DNA of 64,000 nt from Acetatifactor sp. (GTDB lineage Bacteria; Bacillota; Clostridia; Lachnospirales; Lachnospiraceae): the NCBI GenBank assembly GCA_029055435.1, contig JAIDDH010000091.1, positions 10,024-74,023 of the forward strand, written 5' to 3'. The position numbers and the translations under genes are program-made. The notes beneath the pieces were generated by a model that was not told the DNA's origin, did not search any database, and worked only from the letters and a program-made list of their open reading frames with translations. Shown here piece by piece: positions 397-58,569 of the stretch (position 1 is the first letter of the stretch; every line of letters starts with the position of its first letter).

Positions 397-504
397 GGAA
401 TGGAGTTGCAATCTGCTTTGGATGCTGTTACAATATTTTCGGGGCTGAGTGAGCATTGAGGCCCGTGAAGCGATTGAGGCGGCGTGCGAGGAGATTGAGG
501 CAGT

Positions 505-747: not shown

Positions 748-776
748 GATGAAAATACAATAGGAGGACAAGTGTT

Positions 777-1151: not shown

Positions 1152-1155
1152 GCAT

Positions 1156-1656: not shown

Positions 1657-1802
1657 CCGCAAAGTGGTATTAATCACGCAAAAACGCATAAATTCACTGT
1701 TTCCGGTCAATACTCTGTAGCAGAGAGAGGCGATCGGAGAGCGGTTGCTGTCCGGATACAGCGGGACAGTGGGGACTCTCTTAATAAAAAGGAGTGTGTC
1801 GG

Positions 1803-2159
1803 ATGGATTATGTAAATGCGTTCTGGGTGGGCGGTCTGATCTGTGTGGCCGTGCAGATTCTGATGGAGAAGACCAAGATGATGCCGGGGCGGATCATGGT
1901 GCTGTTGGTGGTGACGGGCGCAGTCATCAGCCTGTTTGGCTGGTACGAGCCCTTTCAGAAATTTGCCGGTGCGGGGGCCAGCGTTCCCCTGCTTGGCTTT
2001 GGAAATGTGTTGATGAAGGGTGTGAAGGAAGCCATTGCGGAACAGGGCTTTCTGGGCCTGTTCGCAGGCGGTTTCAAAGCCGGTGCGGTGGGCACCAGCG
2101 CGGCTCTGATTTTTGGCTACCTGGCCAGTCTGATTTTTAAACCGAAGATGAAACAGTGA
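1803..2159 (+). CDS. spoVAE: Stage V sporulation protein AE (SpoVAEB-type membrane protein)
   Basis: MDYVNAFWVGGLICVAVQILM...FAGAGASVPLLGFGN...IFKPK resembles B. subtilis SpoVAEB. GGAG lies 8 nt upstream of ATG 1803. Confidence 0.85.
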   Translation: MDYVNAFWVGGLICVAVQILMEKTKMMPGRIMVLLVVTGAVISLFGWYEPFQKFAGAGASVPLLGFGNVLMKGVKEAIAEQGFLGLFAGGFKAGAVGTSAALIFGYLASLIFKPKMKQ

Positions 2160-2172
2160 CAACAGGTACAAC

Positions 2173-2204
2173 GGGTATGAAAAGCTTTACAGCTTCTCAT
2201 ACCC
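2173..2204. terminator. Strong hairpin between the convergent spoVAE and the 2187..2687 gene (possible bidirectional terminator)
   Basis: GGGTATGAAAAGCT-TTAC-AGCTTCTCATACCC pairs at 13 of 14 positions. The stop codon of the minus-strand gene lies in the loop. The tails are only moderately U-rich on both strands. Confidence 0.4.
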
Positions 2205-2687
2205 GATTCCTTTGTCGTTTAGATAATGGCAGAGAGCACTGTCCCAAATAAGATCAGCCTCCCGGCTCATGACGAAGGTGTGATAGGAGACGCTGGTGGT
2301 GAGGACAGCTTTGCTGCCGTCGTAGCGGATATTGAGCACGAAGGCCTTGACCTGACTGAAGTCCTCACTGCTGTTGTTTTCAGCGAGCAGACGGCGCATG
2401 GTCTCAGGCTTTAGCTGCAATACAAATTTAAAATGCAGGGGCGTGTATTTCCCTTTAATCAGGTCGAAGCACAGACCCTTTATTTTGTTCCACGGACAGA
2501 AATCATAGGGGATATGCTCCGGGTCACGCTCGTCGGGCGGGAAAAAATCAGCATTCATATGTCCGTCTATGGTGTAGCTGTTGGCGGTACGGATGACGGC
2601 CTCCTCCAGCAGAAAACCGTCAAAAGCATCGCTTGAGAGCAATTGACTCATAAAATTTTTCATGGAAACAATCTCTAATGCCTGCAT
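2187..2687 (-). CDS. Hypothetical protein (166 aa)
   Basis: I placed the start at ATG 2687 (MQALEIVSMKNF...), which has a GGAGG RBS. The upstream part of track ORF 2187..3050 runs through an A-rich non-coding tract and was rejected. Confidence 0.6.
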   Translation of the reverse strand: MQALEIVSMKNFMSQLLSSDAFDGFLLEEAVIRTANSYTIDGHMNADFFPPDERDPEHIPYDFCPWNKIKGLCFDLIKGKYTPLHFKFVLQLKPETMRRLLAENNSSEDFSQVKAFVLNIRYDGSKAVLTTSVSYHTFVMSREADLIWDSALCHYLNDKGIGYEKL

Positions 2688-2923
2688 AAAAACCTCCAAT
2701 ACTTTGCCGGGAAGCCCGGCGAAGCGTAAATTCAGTATAGCGCAAATCCGGTAAAAAGAAAATAACAAACAAATTAAAAACAAATAAAAAAACAAAAGAA
2801 AAAGCAAAGAAAAAGAAAAGGTTTTCAAAAATATGAAAATTATGACAGGAAAAGCTTTACAGGCGTGGCACCTCGTGCTATTATAAGTGGTATCAAAAAC
2901 TATGTCGAAGGGTTTGGAAAAAC

Positions 2924-3757
2924 ATGAGTTACAAAATTGTGTTGGATAGTTGTGGGGAAATCCCCCGGGAATATCAGAATGATGCGAGATTTGAGTCTGT
3001 ACCTCTGGGTCTGGAGGTGGGAGACTATTGTATATTGGATGATGAAACATTTAATCAGGCGGAATTTTTGCAGAAGGTGGCGGAGTATCCCAAATGTCCC
3101 AAGTCCTCCTGTCCTTCTCCCGACAGGTATCTGTCGGCCTACACTTGTGACGCGGAGCGCGTTTATGTGGTGACTTTGTCCGCGCAGCTCAGCGGCAGTC
3201 ATAACAGCGCCTGTCTTGCAAGGAATCTTTATCTGGAGAAGTTTGGGGAAAAGCAGATTCATGTGGTGGATTCTCAGTCCGCAAGCTGCGGGGAGACTCA
3301 GATTGCCCTGAAAATAATGGAGCTTGAGGCGCAGGGGTTTCCTTTTGAGGAGATCGTAGAGCAAATCGAGCGGTTCCGCGATGAGATGTTCACTTATTTT
3401 GTGCTGGATAATCTGGAAACACTGCGCAAGAACGGGCGTCTGTCCCGCGCTAAGGCAGTGGTGGCGTCCACTTTGAGTATCAAGCCCATTATGGCCGGCG
3501 ACTGCGGCACGATTGTGCAGAAAGGGCAGGGTATCGGCATCAGGAAGGCTCTTGGCAAAATGGCTGAGATGGTGGCGCAGGTGCCCGATGCTGAGAAGAG
3601 GCGGCTGATGATCACCCACTGCAACGCGCCGGAGCGGGCGGAGCTGATCAAAAAACTGGTCATGGCGAAGGCGGCCTTCCGGGAGTGCATCATCATGGAT
3701 ACCCGAGGTGTCAGCAGCATGTATGCCAATGACGGCGGCGTGATTGTGACGGCATAA
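2924..3757 (+). CDS. DegV family fatty-acid-binding protein
   Basis: 277 aa. MSYKIVLDSCGE...TSCPSP..., ...VVDSQSAS.G and ...LDNLETLRKNGRLS motifs are typical of the DegV/DUF194 family. Confidence 0.85.
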   Translation: MSYKIVLDSCGEIPREYQNDARFESVPLGLEVGDYCILDDETFNQAEFLQKVAEYPKCPKSSCPSPDRYLSAYTCDAERVYVVTLSAQLSGSHNSACLARNLYLEKFGEKQIHVVDSQSASCGETQIALKIMELEAQGFPFEEIVEQIERFRDEMFTYFVLDNLETLRKNGRLSRAKAVVASTLSIKPIMAGDCGTIVQKGQGIGIRKALGKMAEMVAQVPDAEKRRLMITHCNAPERAELIKKLVMAKAAFRECIIMDTRGVSSMYANDGGVIVTA

Positions 3758-3763
3758 TCTGTT

Positions 3764-4039
3764 CTATTTTATCCGGACAGATATCAAATAAAATGCCAAC
3801 CCAAGCTGAAGAATGAGAATTGCGGGGATGCCGTATGCGAAGTACCAGTGTCTGGTCTTGTGATGAAAGGTATGCATGCCCAACAGAGCTCCCAGGCTTC
3901 CGCCCAGCAGAGCCGATAAAAAGAGCGTTTTCTCCGGGATGCGCCAGGCATGCCTGACGGCGCGCCGCTTGTCGATGCCCATCAGAGCAAAAGCAATCAG
4001 ATTGATTAAGATAATATACAGAATTATGTAGTTGTTCAT
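3764..4039 (-). CDS. DUF1294 domain membrane protein
   Basis: 91 aa. ...FALMGIDKRRA..HAWRIPEKTLF..ALLGGSLGALLGMH.FHHKTRH... is the DUF1294 signature. Confidence 0.8.
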   Translation of the reverse strand: MNNYIILYIILINLIAFALMGIDKRRAVRHAWRIPEKTLFLSALLGGSLGALLGMHTFHHKTRHWYFAYGIPAILILQLGLAFYLISVRIK

Positions 4040-4077
4040 ACAGTGTCTCCTGAGTGAGCTTCAAATTGAATTATGAA

Positions 4078-4122
4078 AAATCATAAAAATCCCCCGTCAA
4101 ACGATTATCGGCCTGACGGGGG
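4078..4122 (-). terminator. Rho-independent terminator of argG
   Basis: On the minus strand, CCCCCGTCA-N14-TGACGGGGG is followed by ATTTTTATGATTTTT. It sits immediately downstream of the argG stop. Confidence 0.6.
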
Positions 4123-4142
4123 AAATGCTTTTGGTTATAGGA

Positions 4143-5363
4143 TTAAAGATTCTCGCCCTGTTCCTGCATCTTCATTGCACGCACCTTGCAGGAGAGGCCA
4201 AACAGATTGATGAAGCCCTCTGCATCGTGGTGATCGTACAGATCGCCGGTGGTGAAGGAAGCGATGCTCTCATTGTAGAGAGAGTAGGGAGAGGTGGTGC
4301 CGGCCTTGATGATATTGCCCTTGTAGAGCTTGAATTTTACCTCGCCGGTCACATATTTCTGGGTCTCCTCGATGAATGCCTGCTCTGCCTGACGCAGCGG
4401 TGTAAACCATTTGCCCTCGTAAACCAGACTTGCGAAACGGCTGCCCATCTCTTTCTTCAGAGCGTAGGTGTCACGGTCCAGAATCAGTTCCTCAAGCTGC
4501 TGATGAGCCTCCATGAGAATAGTGCCGCCGGGAGTCTCATAGACGCCGCGGGACTTCATGCCCACCACGCGGTTCTCCACGATATCGATAATGCCGATGC
4601 CGTGTTTGCCGCCAAGTTCATTCAAGGTAGAGATGATGTCGGAAACCTTCATCTTTTTGCCGTTCACGGAAACGGGCACACCCTTTTCGAAGGTCATGGT
4701 CACATACTCGCCCTCCTCGGGAGCTTTCTCGGGAGTGACGCCCAGAACCAGCAGATGCTCAAAATTGGGCTCGTTGGCAGGATCCTCCAGCTCCAGACCC
4801 TCATGGCTGATGTGCCAGATGTTGCGGTCGCGGCTGTAGGAAGAGTCTGCGGAGAAGGGGAGATTGATGCCATGTGCCTGGCAGTATGCAATCTCGGACT
4901 CGCGGGAGTCCATGGTCCACTTGTCGTTTCTCCATGCAGCGATAATCTTGATATCGGGAGCCAGAGCCTTGATGCCCAGCTCGAAGCGGATCTGGTCGTT
5001 ACCCTTACCGGTAGCGCCGTGGCAGATTGCGGTAGCGCCTTCTTTTCTGGCGATCTCAACCAGCTTCTTGGCGATCAGGGGACGAGCCATGGAAGTGCCC
5101 AGCAGGTATTTATTCTCATAGATTGCATTTGCCTGCACGCAGGGAACGATGTACTCGTCGCAGAATTCATCGATCACATTCTCAATGTACAATTTGGAAG
5201 CGCCGCAGAACTTTGCTCTCTCTTCCAGACCGTCCAGCTCCTCCGCCTGTCCGCAGTCGATACAGACGCAGATCACTTCGTAGTCAAAATTCTCCTTCAG
5301 CCAAGGGATGATGGCGGTGGTGTCCAGTCCGCCGGAGTAAGCCAATACAACCTTTTCTTTCAT
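4143..5363 (-). CDS. argG: Argininosuccinate synthase
   Basis: MKEKVVLAYSGGLDTT... (PP-loop), ...ATGKGNDQIRFE..., ...GRENRVVGMKSRGVYETPGGT-like motifs. Start at ATG 5363 with a GGAGG RBS. The 54 extra N-terminal codons of the track ORF were rejected. Confidence 0.95.
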   Translation of the reverse strand: MKEKVVLAYSGGLDTTAIIPWLKENFDYEVICVCIDCGQAEELDGLEERAKFCGASKLYIENVIDEFCDEYIVPCVQANAIYENKYLLGTSMARPLIAKKLVEIARKEGATAICHGATGKGNDQIRFELGIKALAPDIKIIAAWRNDKWTMDSRESEIAYCQAHGINLPFSADSSYSRDRNIWHISHEGLELEDPANEPNFEHLLVLGVTPEKAPEEGEYVTMTFEKGVPVSVNGKKMKVSDIISTLNELGGKHGIGIIDIVENRVVGMKSRGVYETPGGTILMEAHQQLEELILDRDTYALKKEMGSRFASLVYEGKWFTPLRQAEQAFIEETQKYVTGEVKFKLYKGNIIKAGTTSPYSLYNESIASFTTGDLYDHHDAEGFINLFGLSCKVRAMKMQEQGENL

Positions 5364-5468
5364 AATTATATGCCTCCGTTTTGTCATATCGTATTCCATA
5401 GGAATCTGATGCTTACTATACAACATTCCCGGCGGAAAAGCAAGATTTGCCGCAAAACTTGTTGTTGT

Positions 5469-5700
5469 CGGGGGATTGTTTGTTGCAGTTCGGATTTTCG
5501 GAAGTTTCCGTCCGGGCAGGGGCATAGTTGGTATTCAGACACGCTTCCACAAGAGCAATAAATTGCTCCGTGAAAAACGTAACAGACGCTAAGCTCGTGA
5601 CCTCGCTAAGCGCTGACGTTTTTCAAGGGTCTTCATACCAACTATGCCCCTGCCCGGACTGCTTTACGAAAAAGCCCAACTATAACAAACAATCCCCCTG
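5469..5700. repeat. Palindromic intergenic repeat, copy A (core 5511..5659 plus extended imperfect inverted flanks)
   Basis: The left arm TCCGGGCAGGGGCATAGTTGGTATTCAGAC is the reverse complement of the right arm GTCTTCATACCAACTATGCCCCTGCCCGGA (imperfect). There is an inner hairpin GAAAAACGT..ACGTTTTTC. The outer flanks GGGGGATTGTTTGTT / AACAAACAATCCCCC also pair. Nearly identical to copy B. Confidence 0.75.
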
Positions 5701-5772
5701 TTCAGGCAGTTATCAGACCGGGCGGTAGCAAGCAGACTGTATCGGGGCAGGGATAGATTTGTGATTGTGTTG

Positions 5773-6642
5773 CTATGATTGTGTGATATAGAGGTAGGCG
5801 TCCTCCAGGCTGGGGGTCTGGGGCTGGCAGGGGATGTCGGGTTTGTCTCTGGATATCAGTTTTAGGCCTATGCCGTCTTCCACATATTGTTTGCCGGAGA
5901 TGTGATATCGCTGTTCGAGCTGTCTTGCCTGTGTCTCATCCTTTGCTGTGCAGGTCCAGACATGTCCCTCGGCCATTTGTAAAAGCTGCTGTACTGTGCC
6001 GTGGTAGGGGAAGCGCCCTTTTTGCATGATGGCGAGGCGGCTGCAGGTGACGGCAAGGTCCTCTGTCACATGTGTGGAGAAAAGTACCGTGCGGTTCTCG
6101 GAAAAATCCACCAGCAGATTGCGGATTCGGATTCGTTCCTCCGGGTCGAGTCCGGTGGTGGGTTCGTCCACGATCAGAAATTCCGGTTCGTTTAAGAGCG
6201 CCTGAATCAATCCCACCCGACGTTTCATGCCTCCGGACAACTGGCGGATTTTTTTCTTCCGCTGATTTGTCAGACTGGTCCGCTCCAGATAGTAATCGAT
6301 ACGTTTGCGGCAGTCTGTTCGGGGAATGCCCTCCAGTCCGCCCAGGTATTCCAGACATTCCTGTACGGACAAATTGGGATATAGGCTGCACTCCTGTGGG
6401 AGATAACCGATTTTTTGCTGGATTTTCTCATAATTGCTCTCCTGACAGGGGATTCCGTTGATGGTGACGGTTCCTGCCGTGGGCCTGAGTATCGTGGTCA
6501 GGACACGCATCAGCGTAGTCTTTCCCGCGCCGTTTTCCCCCAACAGACCATAGATTCCCGTGGGGATTTCCAGATTGACCTGATCCACGGCTGTGACGCC
6601 GTTTTTAAATGTTACAGACAGATTCTTTAATTCTATGCTCAT
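5773..6642 (-). CDS. ABC transporter ATP-binding protein
   Basis: Walker A GENGAGKTT, signature LSGGMKRR, Walker B FLIVDEPTTGLD. I chose the start at ATG 6642 (MSIELKNLSV) because of its GGAGAA RBS. The track ORF allows a start up to 6666. Confidence 0.85.
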   Translation of the reverse strand: MSIELKNLSVTFKNGVTAVDQVNLEIPTGIYGLLGENGAGKTTLMRVLTTILRPTAGTVTINGIPCQESNYEKIQQKIGYLPQECSLYPNLSVQECLEYLGGLEGIPRTDCRKRIDYYLERTSLTNQRKKKIRQLSGGMKRRVGLIQALLNEPEFLIVDEPTTGLDPEERIRIRNLLVDFSENRTVLFSTHVTEDLAVTCSRLAIMQKGRFPYHGTVQQLLQMAEGHVWTCTAKDETQARQLEQRYHISGKQYVEDGIGLKLISRDKPDIPCQPQTPSLEDAYLYITQS

Positions 6643-6684
6643 AATGTTCTCCATGCCTTTCTGCAAGCTATGAATGCTTACTGA

Positions 6685-7368
6685 TTATAAATGTTTGTAT
6701 ATTTTGGGCTGCGGCTGGATGAGGGCCATGAGGAGCGCCAGCGCCAGTGCAAGCCCCTTGCCCCAGAGCCATCCCATATCCGCCGGATTGTGGGTATCGC
6801 GGAAGACAAATGCAAAGACATTCAGGTTTCCCAATATCCTTTCGCCGATGGTGGAATTGGCAAACAGCCATAATGTCACGGCAATTCCGATACCGGCCCA
6901 TGTGTTTTTGCACAGATTGGAAAAGGTGAAAGCCAATGTGCCCCAAAATAGGATAGATATCAGAACCGCTCCAAGAAACAGAAAAAATAATGTTGTTCCC
7001 GATACCGTGCCTGTGTTTCCCGGGTGCTGCAGGAAAAAGCAGGCATATCCCAGCGCGGATAATATCCACAGGTAGAGGCACTGTACGGCAATTCTGATAA
7101 GCAGTGTCCTTCGTCTGATTTTCTCGGGGCAGCGCCCGAATATCTCCCATCTTTTGCCGCTATGCTCTGCCTGCAGGGCATCCGCGCAGAAGACGATTGC
7201 GAGAATCGCCATGTATGCGTCCAGTGCAATCCCGATTTCGTCCACATCGGAGATGCCGCGGACGACACTGAAGAGAAAGATAAAGCAGAGAGAATAGATG
7301 ATTTTGTAAGTGGGAAGACATATTTTTGCTTCATATTTGAGAATCAATATACCCGCCTCCTTCGCCAT
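6685..7368 (-). CDS. Multi-pass membrane protein, probable accessory permease of the adjacent ABC-2 system
   Basis: Hydrophobic 227-aa ORF (MAKEAGILILKYEAKI...). It overlaps the end of the upstream permease gene by 25 nt. No specific family recognised. Confidence 0.55.
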   Translation of the reverse strand: MAKEAGILILKYEAKICLPTYKIIYSLCFIFLFSVVRGISDVDEIGIALDAYMAILAIVFCADALQAEHSGKRWEIFGRCPEKIRRRTLLIRIAVQCLYLWILSALGYACFFLQHPGNTGTVSGTTLFFLFLGAVLISILFWGTLAFTFSNLCKNTWAGIGIAVTLWLFANSTIGERILGNLNVFAFVFRDTHNPADMGWLWGKGLALALALLMALIQPQPKIYKHL

Positions 7369-8423
7369 ATCCGGATGGACACGCCTATGATACCCGCCGA
7401 CGCCGCAATCAGAAATAACTGGTTCCACAGGACAAGGGGCGGGGGAGCGGTGTCCAGAAATCTTCCCGGAAAGCGCACCATGATAGCCAGCGGTCTGCCG
7501 TAATATCCGTATCTTCCGTCCGGTCCGAGGCTTCCCATGTTGGAGTATACCTGATAGAGAAACAGCAGCGGCACGGCGGGATAGGGGCTCTTGAACAGCA
7601 GGGAGATTATGGTGTAAAAACAGACAATCATCAGAAGATTGGGCACGATATACAGGAGCGAGGCTGCCGGAAAATCCAGAAAGTTCACGGGAAGTCCGTT
7701 TTTATTCCCGACAAGGATGCCTGTAACTCCAAAGATGAGATTAAGAATACCCAATGCTGCAAGCATGGACAGAAAGCCGCCCATGACTTTGCCAAGGATA
7801 TAGGCGGAGGGTGATACCGGTTTTGTGTGCAGCAGCTCCCAGGTATCTCTCCCGGTGTCTCGGATATACAGAAATGCCAGCAGGACGACGGCAAAGAAGC
7901 CCATGAACAGTCCGCCGAAATCTGCAAATTTTCTGGCGAGATAGTAGGAGTAGGGATGCTCACTCATTTTCTCCGAGATATACGCGTTTACCTCCTCCGC
8001 GGAACCTCTGTGCAGCTCGTTCAGGTCCATCAGATAACGCGCACTACTATAACAAAAAGGGGAATGCTCCGCCAGCCAGTCCTCCAGCTCGGGTACCGAG
8101 GGCTCCATCTCCTCCAACTCCGCAAGCATTCTGTCTGTCTCCTCCTGGGAATAGCCGAATTCTTCTGTGAATAACAGACCGATTTGCCTATAGGTGTCGG
8201 CCATCTGCCGCTCTTTGCTAGAAGGGATATAGCCGTTCATGACATCTGCATCGCCCAGACTTTCCACAGGCAGTTCGGCAAATTCCGTGCCCGGCTGAAA
8301 ATAATGCAGATCAAGATAGGGAAACAGCATCTGACTGAGAAAGCATATTATTACAATCAGACCTGCCCACCACAAAGGGTTTCTGAGATAGTTTCTGAAT
8401 TCTCTTTTTGTGATCGTCCACAT
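7344..8423 (-). CDS. ABC-2 type transporter permease with a large extracytoplasmic loop
   Basis: 359 aa. MWTITKREFRNYLRNPLWW.. is a typical ABC-2 N-terminus, followed by a roughly 150-aa soluble loop and then 5 predicted TM segments. Confidence 0.7.
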   Translation of the reverse strand: MWTITKREFRNYLRNPLWWAGLIVIICFLSQMLFPYLDLHYFQPGTEFAELPVESLGDADVMNGYIPSSKERQMADTYRQIGLLFTEEFGYSQEETDRMLAELEEMEPSVPELEDWLAEHSPFCYSSARYLMDLNELHRGSAEEVNAYISEKMSEHPYSYYLARKFADFGGLFMGFFAVVLLAFLYIRDTGRDTWELLHTKPVSPSAYILGKVMGGFLSMLAALGILNLIFGVTGILVGNKNGLPVNFLDFPAASLLYIVPNLLMIVCFYTIISLLFKSPYPAVPLLFLYQVYSNMGSLGPDGRYGYYGRPLAIMVRFPGRFLDTAPPPLVLWNQLFLIAASAGIIGVSIRIWRRRRVY

Positions 8424-8494
8424 GTGTGCGTCCTCCTTTTCGGTTCTGCCAACATGATAAAAGACAAATCACAATAAAAAAACAACGATAAAAA

Positions 8495-9703
8495 TTAACA
8501 GGGAAAAACAGCGACTGCCTTTCCGCCTCCGCCGTTCTCATTCCCCAGCAGAAGCCGTCCGCCCAGCTTTTCACAATAGACGCGGCAGATATACAGACCC
8601 ATTCCGAAATGGGTCAGATCATCCTGCGGGTTGGCATGATAATAGGCCTTTGTCAGTATTTCTGCGCTTTCCGCAAAGCCCGGCCCGTCGTCCGCTACCT
8701 CCACATACAGTTCTCCGTCCCGCACGGAGAGCCGGACGCTCACCTTACTCTCGGCATAGCGCAGCGCGTTAGTCAGGAGATTTTCCAATACCTCCGTGAC
8801 CATTCCCACATCAATCCGCAGCAGTACATCCGCGGCTGCAGAGCCTTCTTCCGTACACAGTTCACATTCCCGACCTGCCGCCAGCACTTCCAGATTTTTC
8901 CGATACTGTTGTGCCAACTCGGAGAGCCGGATTTCCCGGAGCTGTATTTTTCTCTCCTCCAGAGCTGAGAGTTGATTCATGGAGCCGAGAAAATCCTCCA
9001 TTCGCCCAATCTGTACCATACCTTCCTTCAGCATATCGGTCATGGCATCCGCTGTCTCTGCGTCGGTCTGCCGGTCCGGGACAAGCTCCAGCAGCATTTC
9101 CTGATATCCTTTCAAAATTGTCAGAGGAGAACGGATATCGTGGGCAATGGATGCGCGCAGAGCCCGTTCCTGCTCCAGCGTCTTCCACATCCGGCTGTTG
9201 TTTTCCGCAAGCTGCCTGCGCATGACTTCAAATTGAGCGCAGACTTCACCCAATTCATCCCGGTTGGCATAATTTATGGTAAAATCCAGATTCTGACTGC
9301 CGATGGCGGCTGTCGCCCGGGTGAGCTCCGCCAGAGGAGCCGCCAACTTATTCTTATAAAAGAAAAATACCGCCACAATAATTCCCCCACACGCAAACAC
9401 TAACAAACTGTAAGTCTGCAGAAAATCACACACCTCAGAGAGCAGCCTGTCCGAGTCGCTCATCTCCATATTGACAGGGCGCGTAATAGAAGGTACATTT
9501 GGAGCTGCCTCTGAACCGCCACTGTTTTGGTATTCCTCTATCTGCTGCCAATACTCCTCCCCCATATACTTTTCCCAAATCTGCTCCTGCGTCCGCTGCG
9601 CTGTCCGCTCGATAAAATACGTCGGTATAAAACTCAACACCACCGCTACAAGCATATACAATACAATACTTTTCCTGACAGAAAGATTCCGTATCCTGTT
9701 CAT
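8495..9703 (-). CDS. Sensor histidine kinase (HisKA + HATPase_c)
   Basis: Two N-terminal TM segments, H-box SIAHDIRSPLT, N-box LLTNALRYA, G-boxes DDGPGF and GMGLYI. Confidence 0.85.
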   Translation of the reverse strand: MNRIRNLSVRKSIVLYMLVAVVLSFIPTYFIERTAQRTQEQIWEKYMGEEYWQQIEEYQNSGGSEAAPNVPSITRPVNMEMSDSDRLLSEVCDFLQTYSLLVFACGGIIVAVFFFYKNKLAAPLAELTRATAAIGSQNLDFTINYANRDELGEVCAQFEVMRRQLAENNSRMWKTLEQERALRASIAHDIRSPLTILKGYQEMLLELVPDRQTDAETADAMTDMLKEGMVQIGRMEDFLGSMNQLSALEERKIQLREIRLSELAQQYRKNLEVLAAGRECELCTEEGSAAADVLLRIDVGMVTEVLENLLTNALRYAESKVSVRLSVRDGELYVEVADDGPGFAESAEILTKAYYHANPQDDLTHFGMGLYICRVYCEKLGGRLLLGNENGGGGKAVAVFPC

Positions 9704-9773
9704 AAATCACCTATATTCCGTAGCATTGCCGCAATCAACCACCTTGCCGCCTATTATTGCCAATGATGTATTG

Positions 9774-9907
9774 CCGCAGCTTAAGTTTTGCTGGAGAGCA
9801 GCGCGGGCAGGGCATAGCTCTTATGAAGACCCTTGGGAGCGAGAGCGGGTCTGAATAAGAGCTATGCCCCTGTCCGTGCGGCCCTCCCCAGAGCCCTCAA
9901 GCTGCGA
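9774..9907. repeat. Palindromic intergenic repeat, copy C (short form, opposite orientation, core 9804..9876)
   Basis: CGGGCAGGGCATAGCTCTTATGAAGACCC...GGGTCTGAATAAGAGCTATGCCCCTGTCCG has the same arm sequence as copies A and B, but the central module is replaced by about 14 nt. The outer flanks CGCAGCTTAAG / CTCAAGCTGCG also pair. Confidence 0.65.
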
Positions 9908-9917
9908 CAAAACATCT

Positions 9918-10592
9918 CTACTTCCTCCACTGGTACCCCATCCCCCAGACGGTCTGGATGTATTCCGTCTGTGTGCAGGCGGCCAGTTTATTCCGAATCC
10001 GTCTCACCAGCTCCGTGATTCCCCGGCTGTCGCCCTCGGCATCATAACCGCACACCCGCTCATAAATTCGCTCTCTGTCAAACACCTGTCCCGGGTGCAT
10101 GGACAGGAATTCGATGATTTCGTATTCTGTTCTGGTGAAGTCCAGCACGGTATCGCCGAGTGATACTGTCCGCGCGGAGTAGTCGATCATCAGGCCGTCG
10201 CTGAAGCGGTAGGAGACATCTGTCCGCCTTCGTTCCTCCCGTTTCAGATGTGCGATGATACGCGCCTCCAGCTCCTTCAGGCTGAAGGGTTTGACGATAT
10301 AATCGTCTCCGCCGGAGAGCAGACCGTTGACCCGGTCCTGTTCCTCCGCCTTGGCCGTCAGAAAGAGAATCGGACAGGATATTTTGTCCCGAATCTGCCT
10401 GCACAGCTCCAGACCGTCCATCCCCGGCATATTGATATCCAGCAGGATCATATCCGGCTGCTTTTGTATCATAGATATGGCTGTGATTCCGTTTTCCGCC
10501 GTCATGATCTCATAGTTTTTGCCCGAAAGATAGCGGCTCAGCATTTTGAGCAGTGCGGCGTCATCGTCCACCAATAATATTTTATACTGCAT
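9918..10592 (-). CDS. OmpR-family response regulator
   Basis: MQYKILLVDDD..., receiver Asp in ILLDINMPGMDG, and a C-terminal winged helix ending ...VWGMGYQWRK. Confidence 0.9.
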   Translation of the reverse strand: MQYKILLVDDDAALLKMLSRYLSGKNYEIMTAENGITAISMIQKQPDMILLDINMPGMDGLELCRQIRDKISCPILFLTAKAEEQDRVNGLLSGGDDYIVKPFSLKELEARIIAHLKREERRRTDVSYRFSDGLMIDYSARTVSLGDTVLDFTRTEYEIIEFLSMHPGQVFDRERIYERVCGYDAEGDSRGITELVRRIRNKLAACTQTEYIQTVWGMGYQWRK

Positions 10593-10692
10593 AAAATTTA
10601 TACAAAATTGCTCCTTGTAATTTCCTTATATTTTAACATGTTTTTGTAAGAGTGCAAATAGCAGCTTTTGAGGCGGTCGGATGGGCAGGAAA

Positions 10693-12327
10693 TTACAGGC
10701 GGATGACCCTGTCCGCCATGGCGATGGTAGATTCCCTGTGGGCAATCATAATGGTGGTGCAGTTTTGGCTGACACGGCGAATCGCCTCGTTTACCAGCTT
10801 CTCGGATTCGCTGTCAAGGGCGGAGGTGGCCTCGTCCAGGAGCAGGATGGGAGCGTTCATCAGGACGGCGCGGGCGATGGCGATGCGCTGTCTCTCTCCG
10901 CCGGAGAGGGTGTTGCCTCGCTCGCCCACGATGGTGTCATAGCCCTCCGGCAGTTTCATGATAAAGTCATGAGCGTTTGCGATTCGGGCGGCCTGTATGA
11001 TTTCTTCCCGGGAGACTTCCCCTGATTCAGCGTTTCCTTTTCCCCAGGCGATGTTTTCCGCGATGCTGAGCTGATACAGATAGGGCTCCTGAGGGACATA
11101 GGCGATGGGACCGTCCACGCGGATTGTCCCGGAGGCAGGGCGGTAGAAGCCAAGCAGCAGTTTTGCCAGCGTGCTCTTGCCGCAGCCGGATTCTCCGGTG
11201 ATGGCCACGCAGATTCCCTTTTGCACCTCCAGGGATACGTCTGTCAGAATCGGTCTTCCATTAGCACCATTAGCATAAGAAAAGGAGACATGCTCCACAG
11301 ACACGGCGGGAGCGGACAAATCCTTATCATGTACATAAGCAGGTTCCAAATCGGCCTCTTCCTGCAATAAAAATTCTCTTAACCTTTCCACATTGGCAAT
11401 ACAGTGCATCATCTGAGGGAAATATTTCCCAATATCCAAAAACTGATAGCGGAAGGAGCCGTATAAAGTATAGACCGCCGCCAGTCCGCCGAGACTTACC
11501 AGTCCGCGGGAGACAAACCAGACGCCAAGACCGAGAAAGGCCAGAGCGCCGGCCAAATCAAAGAAATTATTAAGCCCTTCTGTGACTGCTGTATAGAGAT
11601 TGCTTTTTTGTTGTACCTGAAACAGACGGCCGTTTGCCTGTCTGTAGTCTGCAAGCAGTTCTGCCTTGGCGGGCAGCAGCTTTACAATCTCCATTCCGGA
11701 CAGAAGATTGGTCAGCTTTTCGGTCAGAGCTCCGACGCTTTGAGACAGGGCTTTTCCGGCCCGCTTCATGGGACCGGCCAGAAGGCTGTTGGCTAGAAAG
11801 GCCAGCATGCTGAGCGCCAGCAGACAAAAAGTGAGATGCGCACTGTAATAGAGCATGGGAATCAAAAACGCTATGGAGGACAGTATGGCCGTGGCGAGTC
11901 TCCGCAGTCTGGAGGAATAAATATCCCCTACCCGTTCCGTGTCAAAGATCAGTTTCGACATGAAATCCCCGCTGTGATGCTCCTCATAATAGGCATAGGG
12001 CAGGCGAAGGACTTTGGAGAAAACCAGTTTTCCAAGAGAGGCAACGCCTTTTGCACCTTCGGTATTGTAGCGGGCGATGGAGAATTTCCAAAGCATCTGA
12101 CACAGGACGAACAGCATGAAGCTGCCCAGAACTGCCAGATGTACTCCGGAAATTTGTCCTGTCTGCGCCGCTGTGATAATCTGCTTGACAATCAATGCAT
12201 TGGCGATTCTGGTCCCGGATTGTGCGAGGGCGGAGATCACGATGGCGCCCAGATATAGAGGAAGCCTTTTGCCCAGAAGTCCCAGAATCCATCTGAGAGA
12301 GCCGGTTTTAGCGGTATTTATGTCCAT
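10693..12327 (-). CDS. ABC exporter, fused permease/ATPase (type IV MDR-like half transporter)
   Basis: 544 aa. N-terminal 6-TM domain, Walker A GESGCGKST, signature LSGGERQR, Walker B ILLLDEATSALD. Confidence 0.9.
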   Translation of the reverse strand: MDINTAKTGSLRWILGLLGKRLPLYLGAIVISALAQSGTRIANALIVKQIITAAQTGQISGVHLAVLGSFMLFVLCQMLWKFSIARYNTEGAKGVASLGKLVFSKVLRLPYAYYEEHHSGDFMSKLIFDTERVGDIYSSRLRRLATAILSSIAFLIPMLYYSAHLTFCLLALSMLAFLANSLLAGPMKRAGKALSQSVGALTEKLTNLLSGMEIVKLLPAKAELLADYRQANGRLFQVQQKSNLYTAVTEGLNNFFDLAGALAFLGLGVWFVSRGLVSLGGLAAVYTLYGSFRYQFLDIGKYFPQMMHCIANVERLREFLLQEEADLEPAYVHDKDLSAPAVSVEHVSFSYANGANGRPILTDVSLEVQKGICVAITGESGCGKSTLAKLLLGFYRPASGTIRVDGPIAYVPQEPYLYQLSIAENIAWGKGNAESGEVSREEIIQAARIANAHDFIMKLPEGYDTIVGERGNTLSGGERQRIAIARAVLMNAPILLLDEATSALDSESEKLVNEAIRRVSQNCTTIMIAHRESTIAMADRVIRL

Positions 12328-12375
12328 CTCAATACTCCTTTCGGCGGTGTGATTTATGTTTTGATGTATATGAGG

Positions 12376-14160
12376 TCAGGCCTGCTCCGCCATACATTTC
12401 TGCAGTCTTGCATATGCGCCCTGAAGGCGGCTCAGTTCCTCATGAGTGCCCTGTTCGGCAATCTGTCCATGTTCTATCACATAGATGCAGTCTGCATTCT
12501 GAATGGTGGAGAGGCGGTGTGCCACCGTGATGATGGTTTTGCCTGAGGCGGTCCGTTCCAGAGCCTCCGTGAGCAATCTTTCATTCTCGTTATCAACAGA
12601 GGCGGTGGGCTCATCAAGAAGCAGAATGGGAGCGTCTTTCAGAATGGCTCTGGCGATGGCGAGTCTCTGTTTTTCACCGCCGGAGAGCCGCGCGCCCCTC
12701 TCGCCGATAATTGTGTCATACTGCTCCGGCAGCCGCATGATCATATCATGGATATTGGCGTCTTTACAGGCATCTATCACTTCCTGACGGGTTGCGCCCT
12801 CTCTGCCGTAAGCCACGTTCTGCCAGACGCTCACGGGAAAGAGCACTGTATTCTGGGATACATAGGAAAAGCATTTTCTGGCGGCCTCGAGATCCCATTC
12901 CTCAAAAGGTTTTCCGAACAGCAGATATTCTCCCTGATGTTTTTGATAAAGTCCGCACAAGAGCTTCAGGACGGTGCTCTTGCCCTCCCCGGAGCCGCCG
13001 GCAAAGGCCACATGCATACCTTGGCCTATAGAGAGTGAGATGTCTCTCAGCACAGGCTTGTCCGGCTCGTCCTTTTTTTGTTCGGTGTCTGCTTCACCAT
13101 CTCCATATGAAAAACAGATTCCCTGTAGGCATATGGCAGGCTCTGTGTTCTGCCCATGAAGCGCCTCCTGCGGCAGTTCAAAGGAGCCGCCGCTTTTCTC
13201 AGGAGCCCGGTCTAAAATATCCTGCAGGCGTTCCATGGAGACGCCCGCTTCCCGGATTTCATTCAGTGCGAAGATAATGTCGCCCACAGGATAGATGATT
13301 CTGCCCAGCATTACTGTAAAGCCCAGCAGTTCTCCTGTGCTGACACGGCCCTGTGAAAACTCATAGAGGGCAAATAGATAGCAGATTACCAGTGGAATCT
13401 GAGTGAGGATACTTTTCAGTGACCAGGCTAGTGAGGATATCTTGGTGGATGCCGCCTTGTTCGCCGCGATTTCATCCAGAACGGCATCCATTTTCTGTTT
13501 TTGGCGGTGATAAAGTCCAAAGCTCCGCCCCACTTCAATGCCCTGTATCATATCATAGGCCCAGGTGGTGCGCCGATCCATCTGGGAGCGCTGGACTTTG
13601 ACGATGGCCGTCAGCTTTTTGGACAGCCTGTCCGACACCAGCAGCATGACAGGATAGCTCGCAAACAGAACCACAATCAAAAACACATCCATATCGGCCA
13701 GATACGCCGTGACCAGAATTACCGTGATGCAGTCCATCAGCAGAATGGGCAGAGTCTCGGAAAAAAATCGCCCCATGGCGTCCATATCCGAAATCAGCCG
13801 GGACATGATACTGCCGGAGCCGTGTCCGTCAAAATAAGCGTAGGGAAGAGAGAGAAGTTTTGCTCCCAGTCTGTCTCTGATGGAGCGCTGCACCTTTGCG
13901 CTGTAGGTGCTGCCGCATGCGGATTGCAGACAGGCGGATACCGCTCCTCCCAGAGCCAATATGCATAATGGAATAAGGAATTCCTCAAAAGTTATGTTTT
14001 CTCCCGCCAGCACGGCGTCTGCGGCCAGAGTGATATAGGAGTTTCCGCGAATCAGTGCGGCATTCACTAGAAAGGCGCAGATCAGATAGACCAGCAGCCA
14101 TGGACTGTGCCGGAGAGCATCGCTCCACAGGGCAGATTTTTTTGTTTTGTGGGTTACCAT
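12376..14160 (-). CDS. ABC exporter, fused permease/ATPase (partner half transporter)
   Basis: Walker A GGSGEGKST, LSGGEKQR, ILLLDEPTASVD. Start at ATG 14160 (MVTHKTKK..), with GGAG 8 nt upstream. Only 3 nt separate it from the stop of the upstream gene. Confidence 0.9.
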   Translation of the reverse strand: MVTHKTKKSALWSDALRHSPWLLVYLICAFLVNAALIRGNSYITLAADAVLAGENITFEEFLIPLCILALGGAVSACLQSACGSTYSAKVQRSIRDRLGAKLLSLPYAYFDGHGSGSIMSRLISDMDAMGRFFSETLPILLMDCITVILVTAYLADMDVFLIVVLFASYPVMLLVSDRLSKKLTAIVKVQRSQMDRRTTWAYDMIQGIEVGRSFGLYHRQKQKMDAVLDEIAANKAASTKISSLAWSLKSILTQIPLVICYLFALYEFSQGRVSTGELLGFTVMLGRIIYPVGDIIFALNEIREAGVSMERLQDILDRAPEKSGGSFELPQEALHGQNTEPAICLQGICFSYGDGEADTEQKKDEPDKPVLRDISLSIGQGMHVAFAGGSGEGKSTVLKLLCGLYQKHQGEYLLFGKPFEEWDLEAARKCFSYVSQNTVLFPVSVWQNVAYGREGATRQEVIDACKDANIHDMIMRLPEQYDTIIGERGARLSGGEKQRLAIARAILKDAPILLLDEPTASVDNENERLLTEALERTASGKTIITVAHRLSTIQNADCIYVIEHGQIAEQGTHEELSRLQGAYARLQKCMAEQA

Positions 14161-15416
14161 GCAAATTCTCCTTTCTCCCGAATACATTCTTCGCTCGGCT
14201 GTGTTTTGCGCTGTATCTCGCCCAGATAGACGCAGGGGTGATATTGTTCGATGAGTTTCATGGCCAGTCCGGTCTCTCCCGCGGGCACCACTGCAAACAT
14301 ACCGATGCCCATGTGAAAGCGGAGGGGTATAAGCTGTCTGGAAATCATATCCTGGGCGGCGATAAATTGGAAGAGCGGCAGCATGGGTACCCGAGAACGG
14401 TCAAGACAAAAGCACAGGTCCTCCGGCAGCCAGCCTGTAAAACGATATGGATTATTCAGTGCATTGGTGAGCGGGTATGCCCCGTGCAGTAGGCCGGCCT
14501 CTCTGAGCGCATGAAGCGCTTTATAATACGCAGCGGTAGGTTTTATCAGTTCATCGGGGAAATAGTGTTCTTCGTCGATTTTGGCATAGCGCAGTCTGGG
14601 ATTCCGTTCCAGCATGACATGCACAAAAGGATAGGAGATTCCGTGGATGCCATCCGTGTGAATACCGATTACCGCATCGCCCTCCCGGATATCATTCCTG
14701 GTCATAAGTTCTTCCTGCCGCGCCACACCGGAGCAGAATCCATACAGTTCATACTCATGGGAGCGGAAATTGATAGGCTGACAGCCGACCTCCAGACCTG
14801 CAAATGCTGTGTCCTGACCTTCGCAGCAGTTTTTGAAGGCCTTTCCCATTCGCATGAGCAGTTCGCCGTCCATATTGCCGCAGATGATGCCCGCTTTAAA
14901 AAACAGAGGCTTTCCTCCGCATGCAGCGATGGCATTGATGGCGTTGGCCGCCATATCCGCGCAGATTTCCGCCTCACACCCGTGATCCTTTGCCAGCCGG
15001 AGCTTTGAGCCCGGAATCGAATGTATCAGGATATGCACAGGGTTTTGTTCCTGTGTCACATCTGTCTGGTACAGGACAGGTTTTGTATAGTAGTTGTCCA
15101 GAAAAAGAGGTGTGTCACTCACCAGTTCCTGCAGCCTGTCTTTTATTTCATAGAGCCGGTGCGTGTTAAAACCGGAATCCATATAACTGATGTCATGTTC
15201 TGTCAGATACCGACCGGTGAGCAGACTGTCCGTGGAGAGGCCCAAAGCCGTAGCCAAATCGTAGAGAAGCTCCACCGACGGAACGCTGGTGCCCAGTTCC
15301 CAGCGGGAGACTGCCTGATAGGACACATGCAGCATATCCGCGAGCTGCTTCTGCGTCAGTCCCATACGCTTTCTCTCCTGCACAATCATTTTTGCTAAAT
15401 TATCTCTGTCAAACAT
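14154..15416 (-). CDS. XRE-family HTH domain fused to an AIR-synthase-related (PurM-like, probably non-catalytic) domain
   Basis: Start at ATG 15416 with a GGAGG RBS. The N-terminus MFDRDNLAKMIVQERKRMGLTQKQLADMLHVSYQAVSRWELG is an HTH_3 domain. The remainder aligns by eye with the genuine PurM of this window (..AACGGKPLFF.., ..GDAVIGIHTDGIHGISY..), but the conserved Asp-containing motifs are substituted. Confidence 0.75.
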   Translation of the reverse strand: MFDRDNLAKMIVQERKRMGLTQKQLADMLHVSYQAVSRWELGTSVPSVELLYDLATALGLSTDSLLTGRYLTEHDISYMDSGFNTHRLYEIKDRLQELVSDTPLFLDNYYTKPVLYQTDVTQEQNPVHILIHSIPGSKLRLAKDHGCEAEICADMAANAINAIAACGGKPLFFKAGIICGNMDGELLMRMGKAFKNCCEGQDTAFAGLEVGCQPINFRSHEYELYGFCSGVARQEELMTRNDIREGDAVIGIHTDGIHGISYPFVHVMLERNPRLRYAKIDEEHYFPDELIKPTAAYYKALHALREAGLLHGAYPLTNALNNPYRFTGWLPEDLCFCLDRSRVPMLPLFQFIAAQDMISRQLIPLRFHMGIGMFAVVPAGETGLAMKLIEQYHPCVYLGEIQRKTQPSEECIREKGEFAW

Positions 15417-15447
15417 AAGTATTCTTCCTCCGTTTTCAGGGTAGCAT

Positions 15448-15477
15448 AAAAGAATTATTGCCACAATCAATTCTTTT
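15448..15477. promoter_or_regulatory. 9-bp perfect inverted repeat in the promoter region of the HTH-PurM-like operon (candidate operator)
   Basis: AAAAGAATT-N12-AATTCTTTT lies 32-61 nt upstream of the start codon and overlaps a TTGATT-N17-ATGCTA promoter-like sequence on the minus strand. Confidence 0.25.
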
Positions 15478-15509
15478 GATGAGATTTCGGGACCGCTCAA
15501 CTGCCAGTT

Positions 15510-15692
15510 GAGTCGGCGTTTTCCATATTTCCGCCCGGGCAGGGGATAGTTGGTATTCAGACACGCTTCCGCTCCGAGAAAAACGTAGCAGACGCTAAGC
15601 TCGATAGGACATCTCGCTAAGCGCTGACGTTTTTCAAGGGTCTTCATACTAACTATCCCCTGCTCGGGCTGGTATATGGAAAAGTCGAAGTT
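15510..15692. repeat. Palindromic intergenic repeat, copy B (core 15534..15669)
   Basis: CCCGGGCAGGGGATAGTTGGTATTCAGACACGCTTCC...GCTAAGCGCTGACGTTTTTCAAGGGTCTTCATACTAACTATCCCCTGCTCGGGC is near-identical to copy A, apart from a roughly 17-nt indel and point differences. Confidence 0.75.
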
Positions 15693-15715
15693 ACAGCCAT
15701 TTTCATAAAATTTTT

Positions 15716-15870
15716 GTTGAAAGGGCATTATGCTCATGTTAAAATAATTAATAAGGGAATGAAGTTCTCCCTTGGGAAACCTAAACCGCATTTTATGCTG
15801 ATGACTTCTGCGAAATTTGCGCAGAAATTATCAGCTTTTTTAATTTCTGCAATCAATAGGAGGAATTTAT
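15716..15870 (+). promoter_or_regulatory. Promoter (TTGAAA-N17-TAAAAT) and roughly 118-nt structured leader of the cation antiporter gene
   Basis: -35 at 15717-15722 and -10 at 15740-15745. The leader contains hairpin AAGGGA..TCCCTT and two mutually exclusive hairpins: 15806-15826 (TTCTGCG/CGCAGAA) and 15821-15850 (GCAGAAATTA/TAATTTCTGC). Confidence 0.35.
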
Positions 15871-17043
15871 ATGTTGACAAGTGTTGCACTAATTCTTTTA
15901 TTGGGATTGCTTTTAGGAAGTATATTTTCAAAAATGAGGCTGCCAAGTCTGTTAGGAATGATTATTGTCGGAATTATTTTAAGCCCTCATGCGCTTAATC
16001 TCATTGACAAATCAATTTTAAGCATTTCAGCAGATTTACGGCAGATTGCATTGGTAATTATTCTGACAAGAGCAGGTTTATCATTAAATGTTGCTGATTT
16101 GAAGAAATCCGGCAGACCGGCAATCCTTATGTGCTTCGTTCCTGCGTGCACAGAAATTGTAGGGACAATTATCTTAGCGCCGATATTATTAGGCATAACT
16201 GTACTGGAAGCCGCAATTATTGGAAGTGTAATCGCGGCGGTATCTCCCGCTGTTATAGTGCCGAGAATGATTAAACTGATTGATGAGGGATATGGTAAAA
16301 AACATAGTATTCCGCAGTTGCTATTGGCAGGTGCGTCAGTGGACGATGTTTTTGTGATTGTTGTATTTACTGCATTAATTTCTTTGGCTTCAACAGGTAC
16401 TATAGCTGTTATCAATTTTTTACAGATACCAGTTTCCATTCTAATGGGAATTGGCATAGGAGCGGCTATGGGAAGTGTATTGGTAATATTTTTCCAAAAA
16501 TATCATATGCGGGACTCTGTTAAAATTCTGATAATACTCAGCTTTTCGTTTTTACTTCTTGAATTGCAAAACCGTTTAGAAAGGATTATACCGATTTCCG
16601 GACTTTTAGCTATTATGAGTCTGGGAATTGTAATAAAACAGAAGTATTCTGTATTAGCCAAACGGTTATCAAGTAAATACAACAAATTATGGGTAGCGGC
16701 AGAAGTATTTCTTTTTGTGCTTGTAGGGGCAACCGTTGATTTGAAATATGCTGTGACCGCAGGTATATTTGCTGTTTTATTGGTGATAGGCGCTTTGGTT
16801 TTCAGAATGGTTGGCGTGGCATTGTCTTTGATAAAAACTGAACTTACAAGACAGGAAAAACTATTCTGTATGTTGGCATACACGCCTAAAGCCACCGTAC
16901 AGGCAGCTATTGGTGCGATACCTTTTACAATGGGATTGGCTTGTGGACAGACTGTATTGACAGTGGCGGTGCTGGCAATTCTCATTACTGCACCATTTGG
17001 TGCAATTTGCATCGATAACCTATATAAAAAGCTTTTAAGCTGA
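15871..17043 (+). CDS. Cation:proton antiporter (CPA family, Na+/H+ exchanger-like)
   Basis: 390 aa with about 11-12 TM segments. MLTSVALILLLGLLLGSIFSKMRLPSLLGMIIVGIILSP... is typical of the Na_H_Exchanger family. The gene is visibly AT-rich compared with its neighbours. Confidence 0.8.
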   Translation: MLTSVALILLLGLLLGSIFSKMRLPSLLGMIIVGIILSPHALNLIDKSILSISADLRQIALVIILTRAGLSLNVADLKKSGRPAILMCFVPACTEIVGTIILAPILLGITVLEAAIIGSVIAAVSPAVIVPRMIKLIDEGYGKKHSIPQLLLAGASVDDVFVIVVFTALISLASTGTIAVINFLQIPVSILMGIGIGAAMGSVLVIFFQKYHMRDSVKILIILSFSFLLLELQNRLERIIPISGLLAIMSLGIVIKQKYSVLAKRLSSKYNKLWVAAEVFLFVLVGATVDLKYAVTAGIFAVLLVIGALVFRMVGVALSLIKTELTRQEKLFCMLAYTPKATVQAAIGAIPFTMGLACGQTVLTVAVLAILITAPFGAICIDNLYKKLLS

Positions 17044-58544: not shown

Positions 58545-58569
58545 TAAGGATTACAGAGAGGAAAAACTT

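Follow-up and report, generated by a model that had tools for sequence, protein, structure and literature searches.

A family of MITE-like foldback repeats with a conserved central junction in gut Lachnospiraceae

Here we report that a 64-kb stretch of Acetatifactor sp. DNA (the window, by which we mean the whole stretch) carries three copies of a palindromic element, A, B and C, which are homologous, non-coding and intergenic rods of 150-230 nt each. They belong to a new family of foldback repeats resembling MITEs (transposable elements of miniature size with inverted repeats), although the kind of repeat as such is already known. We consider it probable that A, B and C are small, non-autonomous mobile elements of the MITE/foldback type that reside in gut Lachnospiraceae of Acetatifactor-like lineages. 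What carries this reading is the large number of copies and the diversity of their flanks, orthologous sites that are filled in some related species and empty in others, and one insertion that shows terminal inverted repeats together with a 14-bp target duplication; a MITE-like mobile palindrome, one of the options raised by an earlier note made from the letters of the window alone, thus is the one we retain.

Copies, empty sites and turnover

All repeat sequences quoted in the earlier note were found at their places, and its description of terminal arms that are reverse complements of each other agrees with our repeat search, in which the inner arms of copy A (5510-5540/5629-5659) are 94% and the arms of copy B (15519-15562/15640-15683) 84% complementary. 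The outer flanks of A (5470-5498/5670-5698; 86% complementary) are again inverted repeats, as had been proposed. In the same search, A pairs with C in inverted orientation; C retains the same arms and the junction loop but is devoid of the 57-nt inner hairpin. The claim that the cores of A and B are near-identical holds for blocks (94-97% identity) rather than for the whole, which owing to indels between these blocks comes to ~81% over 175 nt. A 19-nt arm pattern occurs six times where 0.48 occurrences are expected, and copy A has folding energies of -126 (plus strand) and -133 kcal/mol (minus strand), which lie at z-scores of -12 and -14 relative to shuffles; together, these values indicate palindromes beyond chance. 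When the whole window was searched with a covariance model, no copy other than A, B and C came up. Consistent with the earlier view that the copies are intergenic and without coding capacity, the long open reading frames (ORFs) that cross A (4143-5525, minus strand) and B (14154-15791, minus strand) are over-extended neighbours, whose true starts at 5363 and 15416 each have a ribosome-binding site. The solo arm-like fragment next to A is present too. It sits in an 88-nt stretch that is absent from strains L126 and L221 (here and below, L numbers denote related loci or strains), looks by eye like the 5' arm of the L002 type and, by analogy with a deletion allele of B (see below), may be the leftover of a mostly deleted copy.

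Empty sites are found at all three loci. A sister species (L223-L226), with a kinase 71% identical to that of the window, maintains the gene order argB-argJ-argC / XRE-ABC-ABC-RR-HK-permeases-ABC / argG (RR, response regulator; HK, histidine kinase) and yet is missing all of A, B and C: a single nucleotide separates the response-regulator stop from the kinase ATG, and the other two spacers are without element. This is also why we rejected a reading in which A and B, as direct copies, delimit 10 kb of ABC and two-component genes as a composite transposon or mobile island, since L223-L226 keep the cluster between argC and argG in the absence of any element. L227 is empty at the site of copy C, the L117 copy is inserted between two genes that abut in the window, and the site that holds the L149 copy is empty in L148 and L138. 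As a separate observation on this gene cluster, the kinase and permease genes of L221 are separated by two inserted genes that the window does not have there, one of the sigma-70 family and its neighbour (11242-12607 of L221).

The clearest case comes from L160 and L174, whose flanks are ~92% identical. Relative to L174, L160 has an insert of 225 nt with the termini AGACAATTGCGAAAC.../...TTTCGCAATCGGC, which starts 14 nt upstream of the argC start codon. On either side of the insert stands the 14-bp sequence TAGGTAAGTTCTCT, a perfect direct repeat of which L174 has one copy only. L160 and L149 share the termini AGRCRATTGCGAAAC and its complement at the exact ends of the insert. At A, B, C and the other copies a target-site duplication is not recognisable, so L160/L174 is the only readable case. 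Taken together, these comparisons show that the elements are insertions.

Turnover is seen between close strains as well. Those with 100% identical response regulators differ at the copy C locus, where L129 has a 57-nt inner hairpin (P2) placed exactly between CGCTCC and CAAGGG, and this hairpin is of the L002 type, unlike that of A and B. One strain has lost 119 nt of copy B between TGGTAT direct repeats, which left a solo arm. Between the window and L221, copy C shows concerted arm changes (GGG-CATAG/CTATGCCCC to GGGATATAG/CTATATCCC), and at two positions where pairing is perfect in copy B of L221, that of the window has A.C mismatches. The concerted changes could reflect selection on pairing or conversion between copies.

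That the element forms a repeat family, a claim that called for copies beyond the three, is borne out by metagenomes and related assemblies. With contigs (Logan) of four gut metagenomes mapped onto copy A, depth over the core rises to 50-100x that of single-copy flanks (e.g. 15 to 1486, 86 to 7878), peaks over TTTTTCAAGGGTCTTCATA, and has a ratio of ~90-100 in all four metagenomes, while dozens of contigs run into different flanks. Since the depth ratio is about the same in all four samples, most copies are read as sharing one genome, and the copy number that follows from this ratio has to be taken as an upper bound. The family is probably scattered in dozens of copies through some gut Lachnospiraceae genomes. 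Contigs break inside the element, which accounts for its rarity in collections of metagenome-assembled genomes (MAGs).

Pattern scans and a covariance model (R1) run over 1.12 Mb of related loci gave us 20 copies to work with. Full copies were found in L002 (two, adjacent), L081 (three), L117 (a roe-deer MAG), L149, L160, L161, L206 and L227, in L218-L220 (three contigs of one metagenome) and, as orthologues of A, B and C, in L221/L222; diverged copies were picked up by the covariance model in at least 10 other Lachnospiraceae assemblies. Two arm patterns matched only L002 among species representatives. A first metagenome pattern scan had no match and a second one returned three true copies along with five chance matches in coding sequence, while plasmid, phage and viral collections had no similarity to the element. 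The flanks of the copies are unrelated, which rules out duplication of flanking genes as the source of the similarity. Adjacent inverted pairs, or a copy next to a remnant, are frequent (L002, 6425-6580/6619-6776; L081, 6292-6464/6730-6901; window, 5470-5762), and such clustering suggests either that insertion has hot spots or that existing copies are preferred as targets. In L221, a second and seemingly unrelated palindrome of ~170 nt (GGGAGGGATTGCAG...CTGCAATCCCTCCC, ~3790-3960) adjoins the copy B orthologue, so that this spacer seems to collect different palindromic inserts.

A strand-asymmetric fold and how to read it

Nearly the whole element is one long imperfect palindrome. On the strand that reads GGAGCG, a long closing stem leads into AGAC-CC-U, the inner hairpin P2, C-GG-A, a GC-GNRA-GC mini-hairpin and G-N-GUCU before the closing stem returns. 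P2 (UGAAAAACG...) is optional and has a 2-nt YU bulge as well as a U.U mismatch; the mini-hairpin, whose stem counts just two base pairs, sits in a three-way junction. While the sequence of the closing stem varies between subfamilies, and the arms of L117, L149, L160 and L206 have almost no sequence in common with the window but keep their complementarity, the centre is best conserved, with (R)GAGC-GNRA-GCG in every copy and with GAGA, GGAA, GAAA, GGGA or GCGA as mini-hairpin loops. Even the two-pair stem covaries, from GC/GC to GU/AC in L161 and L220. A tandem G.A/A.G mismatch (UGAA/UGAA) that lies inward of the closing stem is confined to the window subfamily and L117; we rejected it as a family hallmark or kink-turn since diverged members pair normally here and the 3-nt bulge is missing.

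With 20 copies aligned to the model, 96% of cells are paired, compared to 35-48% when partners are slid, a value inflated somewhat by the fitting of the alignment to the model. In this set, compensatory changes occur in 44 of the 51 pairs, and double-change cells number 187 against 45 +/- 6 in shuffles. The conserved fold is strand-asymmetric. On the GGAGCG strand, G.U pairs outnumber A.C mismatches by 34:12 and purine-purine mismatches outnumber pyrimidine-pyrimidine ones by 19:8; the same strand is predicted to be the more stable one in 18/20 copies using RNA parameters (mean difference 6.8 kcal/mol) and in 16/20 using DNA parameters. This strand test was ambiguous with the first four copies and became clear with 20, with the caveat that the alignment is model-fitted and that orthologues are among its rows. 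Hence the suggestion of a structured element stands as far as covariation and strand asymmetry go, both being strong, but not in the sense of an RNA at the service of the host, as nothing shows the structure to act as such.

Measured against the features of prokaryotic MITEs listed in section 2.1 of PMC10969869, the element is short (below 500 bp, here 150-230 bp) and non-coding, the only ORFs being those of over-extended neighbours; it has terminal inverted repeats, which span near the whole element and so are longer than the usual 4-30 bp; and its copies are dispersed, intergenic and polymorphic for presence or absence. In the mechanism we favour, new copies insert into intergenic spacers, as the empty sites display, and the 14-bp target duplication of the one clean case implies staggered cuts by an enzyme supplied in trans. 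Once inserted, copies decay by slippage deletions which leave solo arms, as is seen at copy B; they appear to exchange modules with one another and seem to be under a selection that keeps one strand foldable, and what the mobilising machinery recognises would most likely be either the single strand in its folded form or the palindrome's centre. Any effects on genes nearby would be by-products, for example long double-stranded RNA where transcripts read through a copy, or promoters and ribosome-binding sites pushed out of place. In line with what is expected of a selfish insert, orientation to neighbouring genes is mixed: A, B, both L002 copies (L002a, L002b), L117 and L227 are sense, whereas C, L161, L149 and L081a are antisense.

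Apart from the inflated pairing mentioned above, several points weigh against MITE-like mobility. Only one duplication is readable, and the nearest empty sites for A, B and C come from the species with the 71%-identical kinase. A transposase or an autonomous partner with the same termini was not found in 1.1 Mb of related sequence. Conservation is higher in the centre than at the termini, opposite to what most MITEs show, and the copy number per genome derives from metagenome depth ratios instead of counts. Finally, the compensatory arm change at the orthologous C locus (window vs L221) could reflect selection on structure for a host function and not mobility.

Among the alternatives, we regard it as unlikely that the element is mobilised as a single-stranded DNA (ssDNA) hairpin, be it in a REPIN/RAYT-like manner or by an IS200/IS605-type or another HUH enzyme, with the folded GGAGCG strand as substrate and the GCGNNAGC mini-hairpin plus junction as recognition site. 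Such a route would suit a strand asymmetry that is independent of gene orientation, persists in the DNA stability predictions and goes along with ends less conserved than the centre. In addition, the invariant GCG-NN-AGC amounts to an exceptionally stable DNA mini-hairpin at priming sites of ssDNA phages and plasmids, GCGNNAGC being known as a very stable one from ssDNA replication origins (PMC13037366). Against this, the elements are 5-10 times the length of a REP (repetitive extragenic palindromic) unit, a purine takes loop position 3 in all five loop types, which is the rule for GNRA loops of RNA but not for mini-hairpins of DNA, where any base is accepted, and no Y1/HUH gene was seen in the neighbourhood within the window, the only region inspected. 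Nor is the 14-bp duplication in L160 a product to be expected of Y1 transposases (IS200/IS605 family), which to our knowledge make no target duplication.

Similarly doubtful is a host-selected, cis-acting structured RNA (an element for mRNA processing or stability that is cut by RNase III, or a small RNA) which has multiplied because it is useful. The covariation across genera, the GNRA loop statistics and G.U excess, the higher stability of one strand as RNA and the compensatory change at an orthologous locus would all fit, and metatranscriptome contigs do contain the core sequence. However, these contigs have the core at multi-copy depth with neither strand information nor a junction to flanking DNA, never bridging element and flank, and their depth is compatible with DNA carry-over; four raw RNA-seq runs bearing the same species label, which probably stem from host tissue, gave no reads. 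Inside the elements we found no consensus of an intrinsic terminator or a built-in promoter. Rfam 15 at gathering thresholds matched nothing but a fluoride riboswitch in the window, and relaxed searches (E up to 10 or 1) with copies A, L218, L129 and L126 gave chance-level matches only, so the copies are no parts of a known leader RNA, an outcome the earlier note had allowed for. Mixed orientation, with C, L161, L149 and L081a antisense to their neighbours, together with the lack of promoter, terminator and Rfam family argues against a dedicated host RNA. It also speaks against such a role that neighbouring genes have no common functional class, that close relatives with identical gene order do without copies and that deletion alleles and module loss are tolerated.

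The junction itself has a further resemblance. GGAGCG-RR-AGCG-N-GTCTGAATA (e.g. 9835-9856, plus strand, in the window) is the same sequence as a widely conserved part of 23S rRNA that follows immediately 3' of helix 25 (L042, 759-780). More than 120 stretches in many phyla fit this pattern; Rfam, applied to one of them (L042), identified it as 23S rRNA, and many of the rest lie on short, high-coverage contigs typical of rRNA operons. L117 and L081a match 23S rRNA of Lactobacillus johnsonii at 25/27 and 24/26 positions with z-scores of 7-12 against shuffles, and element and 23S rRNA have the same local order of a hairpin, GGA, the GC-GNRA-GC mini-hairpin, G and GUCU...GAAUA. On the other hand, GUCU pairs with GGGC across the GAAUA loop in 23S rRNA but with AGAC of the opposite arm in the element, and L160, a diverged member, is without most of the match. 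We give little credence to a scenario in which the conserved three-way junction (optional hairpin, GC-GNRA-GC mini-hairpin and GUCUGAAUA) is the functional heart of a transposable element recognised by structure, its folded single strand mimicking or deriving from the rRNA junction. The binding partner of this strand would be either a new mobilising enzyme with 14-bp staggered cuts or a protein of the ribosome or of its assembly. If true, this would define a class of bacterial repeats by the hairpin tip and not by the ends.

Least credible is that the junction is an rRNA-derived or rRNA-mimicking module which binds a ribosomal protein or assembly factor, or which represents an escaped helix-25 intervening sequence; rod-like intervening sequences are known from helix 25 (PMC2801512), and pattern matches, identities and local order would agree, but next to the different pairing partner and the deviating L160 there is no copy in an rRNA gene, and a genome would pay a high cost for some 100 decoy sites. 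The window has no rRNA gene, its copies A, B and C are located between protein-coding genes, copies elsewhere adjoin protein-coding genes at the loci inspected, and what is left in common with 23S intervening sequences, which replace the tip of helix 25 or 45 inside the rRNA gene, is 22-27 nt of similarity 3' of helix 25. Membership among REP units or bacterial interspersed mosaic elements (BIMEs), also raised in the earlier note, fails on size, terminal tags and duplication alike. Integron attC sites have conserved boxes at the base of their stem; we dropped them because here it is the tip that is conserved, no GTTRRRY box is visible by eye in the quoted sequences and the genes called around A, B and C include neither an integrase nor a cassette array.

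Gene context in the window

Table 1. Positions of element copies, their parts and neighbouring genes in the window. A and B (-) and C (+) are assigned to the strand that has GGAGC-GNRA-GCG.
Feature	Position	Strand	Remarks
argG	4143-5363	-	
Copy A, full-length foldback element, 229 nt	5470-5698	-	inverted repeats, fold z-scores; covariance-model match 5499-5669, 162 bits
16-nt hairpin insertion within mini-hairpin of copy A	5550-5565	-	strain-specific; other strains and L221 without the 16 nt
Inner hairpin module P2 of copy A, GAAAAACG...CGTTTTTC	5572-5622	-	2-nt bulge; conserved U.U mismatch on minus strand
Solo arm CGGGGCAGGGATAGATTTGT	5743-5762	+	putative remnant of 5' arm of a mostly deleted second copy adjoining A
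ABC ATPase	5773-6666	-	
Two permeases	6685-8423	-	
Histidine kinase	8495-9703	-	
Copy C, short form without P2	9765-9912	+	covariance-model match 9791-9890, 84 bits
Response regulator	9918-10592	-	
Two ABC exporters	10693-14187	-	
XRE-family regulator	14154-15416	-	
Copy B	~15511-15692	-	inverted repeat; covariance-model match 15522-15679, 169 bits
Inner hairpin module P2 of copy B	15578-15635	-	other copies without P2 (joint 15575->15630)
Fluoride riboswitch	15746-15817	+	Rfam RF01734, 51 bits
Na+/H+ exchanger family gene	15871-17043	+	PF00999

Between 4.1 and 15.4 kb the neighbouring genes are all on the minus strand (Table 1). Copy A lies upstream of argG, between its start (5363) and the stop of the ABC ATPase gene (5773). 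Copy C sits inside the response-regulator/kinase operon (stop 9918, start 9703) and is antisense to it, and copy B occupies the divergent spacer between the XRE gene (start 15416, minus strand) and the plus-strand riboswitch and exchanger gene, after which come argC, argJ and argB. In the public assembly, the XRE gene is called as 545 aa and runs through B; counted from its real start it has 420 aa. As the earlier note had it, B marks a compositional junction: GC falls from 0.49 to 0.425, a drop that corresponds to the AT-rich fluoride riboswitch and Na+/H+ exchanger unit (GC ~0.42). This unit is missing from the orthologous argC-XRE spacer of L221 and L223 and looks like a strain-specific acquisition adjoining copy B. 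Judged by ArgG identity (89-97%), the closest relatives are MAGs of uncultured Lachnospiraceae and Acetatifactor from gut samples.

Three further observations concern the surroundings and not the element as such. The motif TTG(C/T)GGCAA(T/A) is repeated in promoter-proximal DNA downstream of A, B and C (5430-5450, 9700-9765 and 15440-15470), with four GGCAA repeats between copy C and the kinase start, and is found once more at 61547-61577; it lies outside the element and may be a binding site for a regulator. The XRE-family regulator combines an N-terminal HTH_3 with matches to both AIR-synthase-related domains, AIRS (22.6 bits) and AIRS_C (21 bits), each just below cut-off, which together would make an unusual fusion. 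Further away, four tandem units of 60-75 nt that are 76-84% identical (59671-59948, plus strand) fall inside an ORF of 585 aa (58432-60189) and would give a repetitive protein segment.

Known repeats and significance

Small dispersed palindromes of other bacteria provide the closest comparisons. Pneumococcal BOX elements are modular, have outer complementary modules around optional inner ones, form stable stem-loops and occur in either orientation to genes. ERIC/IRU and Correia repeats are imperfect palindromes of 100-150+ bp that are best conserved in the centre, come in long and short forms due to internal indels, and are intergenic and can be co-transcribed in either orientation; we know of no transposase dedicated to them. 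For bcr1 of the Bacillus cereus group, compensatory changes have been described. REP units measure 20-40 bp and have GTAG or CGTC tags. They go together with a gene for a Y1 transposase and are not known to duplicate their target. Compared by description, the behaviour of our family is closest to BOX, ERIC/Correia, bcr1 and QMITE elements.

With ERIC (Enterobacteriaceae) and Correia (Neisseria) repeats it has the palindrome, the conserved centre, long and short forms, the intergenic location with possible co-transcription in either orientation, and the lack of a known dedicated transposase in common. It differs in that those duplicate TA, as opposed to 14 bp in one case here, and live in hosts of another phylum, and in its fold, which is asymmetric between the strands, has GNRA loops and shows a G.U excess; Delihas 2011 (PMC3184786) is a review of such repeats. 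Like the BOX repeats, which together with RUP and SPRITE are the subject of Croucher et al. 2011 (PMC3049150), ours are small, non-coding and intergenic repeats of a Firmicute, of modular build as shown by presence and absence of P2; size, host clade, the centre (a three-way junction with GC-GNRA-GC) and a 14-bp target duplication seen once set them apart by description. The likeness to bcr1 and to QMITE2 of Coxiella is that of MITEs of ~150-200 bp with transcripts for which very stable rod-like folds are predicted, yet in QMITE2 the direct repeats measure 7-9 bp and the terminal inverted repeats 23-29 bp (PMC10969869), whereas here the inverted repeat spans near the whole element, termini vary more than the centre and the duplication is longer. 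From REP/BIME and REPINs, which are mobilised by RAYT (PMC3733652) and likewise are extragenic high-copy palindromes with a hairpin thought to be recognised as single strand, our elements differ by a unit length of 150-230 bp and by copy ends without a shared GTAG or CGTC tag; no RAYT (Y1 transposase) was among the Pfam families of genes at ~1-20 kb of the window, the only part covered. As for the mini-hairpin, GCGNNAGC occurs at the complementary-strand origins of phages G4, St-1 and alpha3, and a related CCGAAGG at ssiA of RSF1010 (PMC13037366). GC-G-N-R-A-GC with its two-pair stem, the only motif kept family-wide, thus has counterparts in ssDNA origins and in the GC-GAAA-GC of 23S rRNA, the latter with at least 20 flanking nucleotides identical in several members; there, it marks single functional sites, while here it rides on a dispersed repeat.

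A full-text search of the literature for MITEs found no described small repeat family for Lachnospiraceae, which are dominant gut commensals. In their genomes the elements break short-read assemblies, with contigs ending inside them, and mislead gene callers, which extend ORFs through the elements by 54-125 codons. The conserved junction and its likeness to 23S rRNA offer a concrete starting point in the search for the recognising enzyme or protein. Since copies differ between strains with identical flanking proteins, they are usable as strain markers, and those located in operons or promoter regions, such as the gap between response regulator and kinase or the site 14 nt upstream of the argC start codon, may change gene expression between strains.

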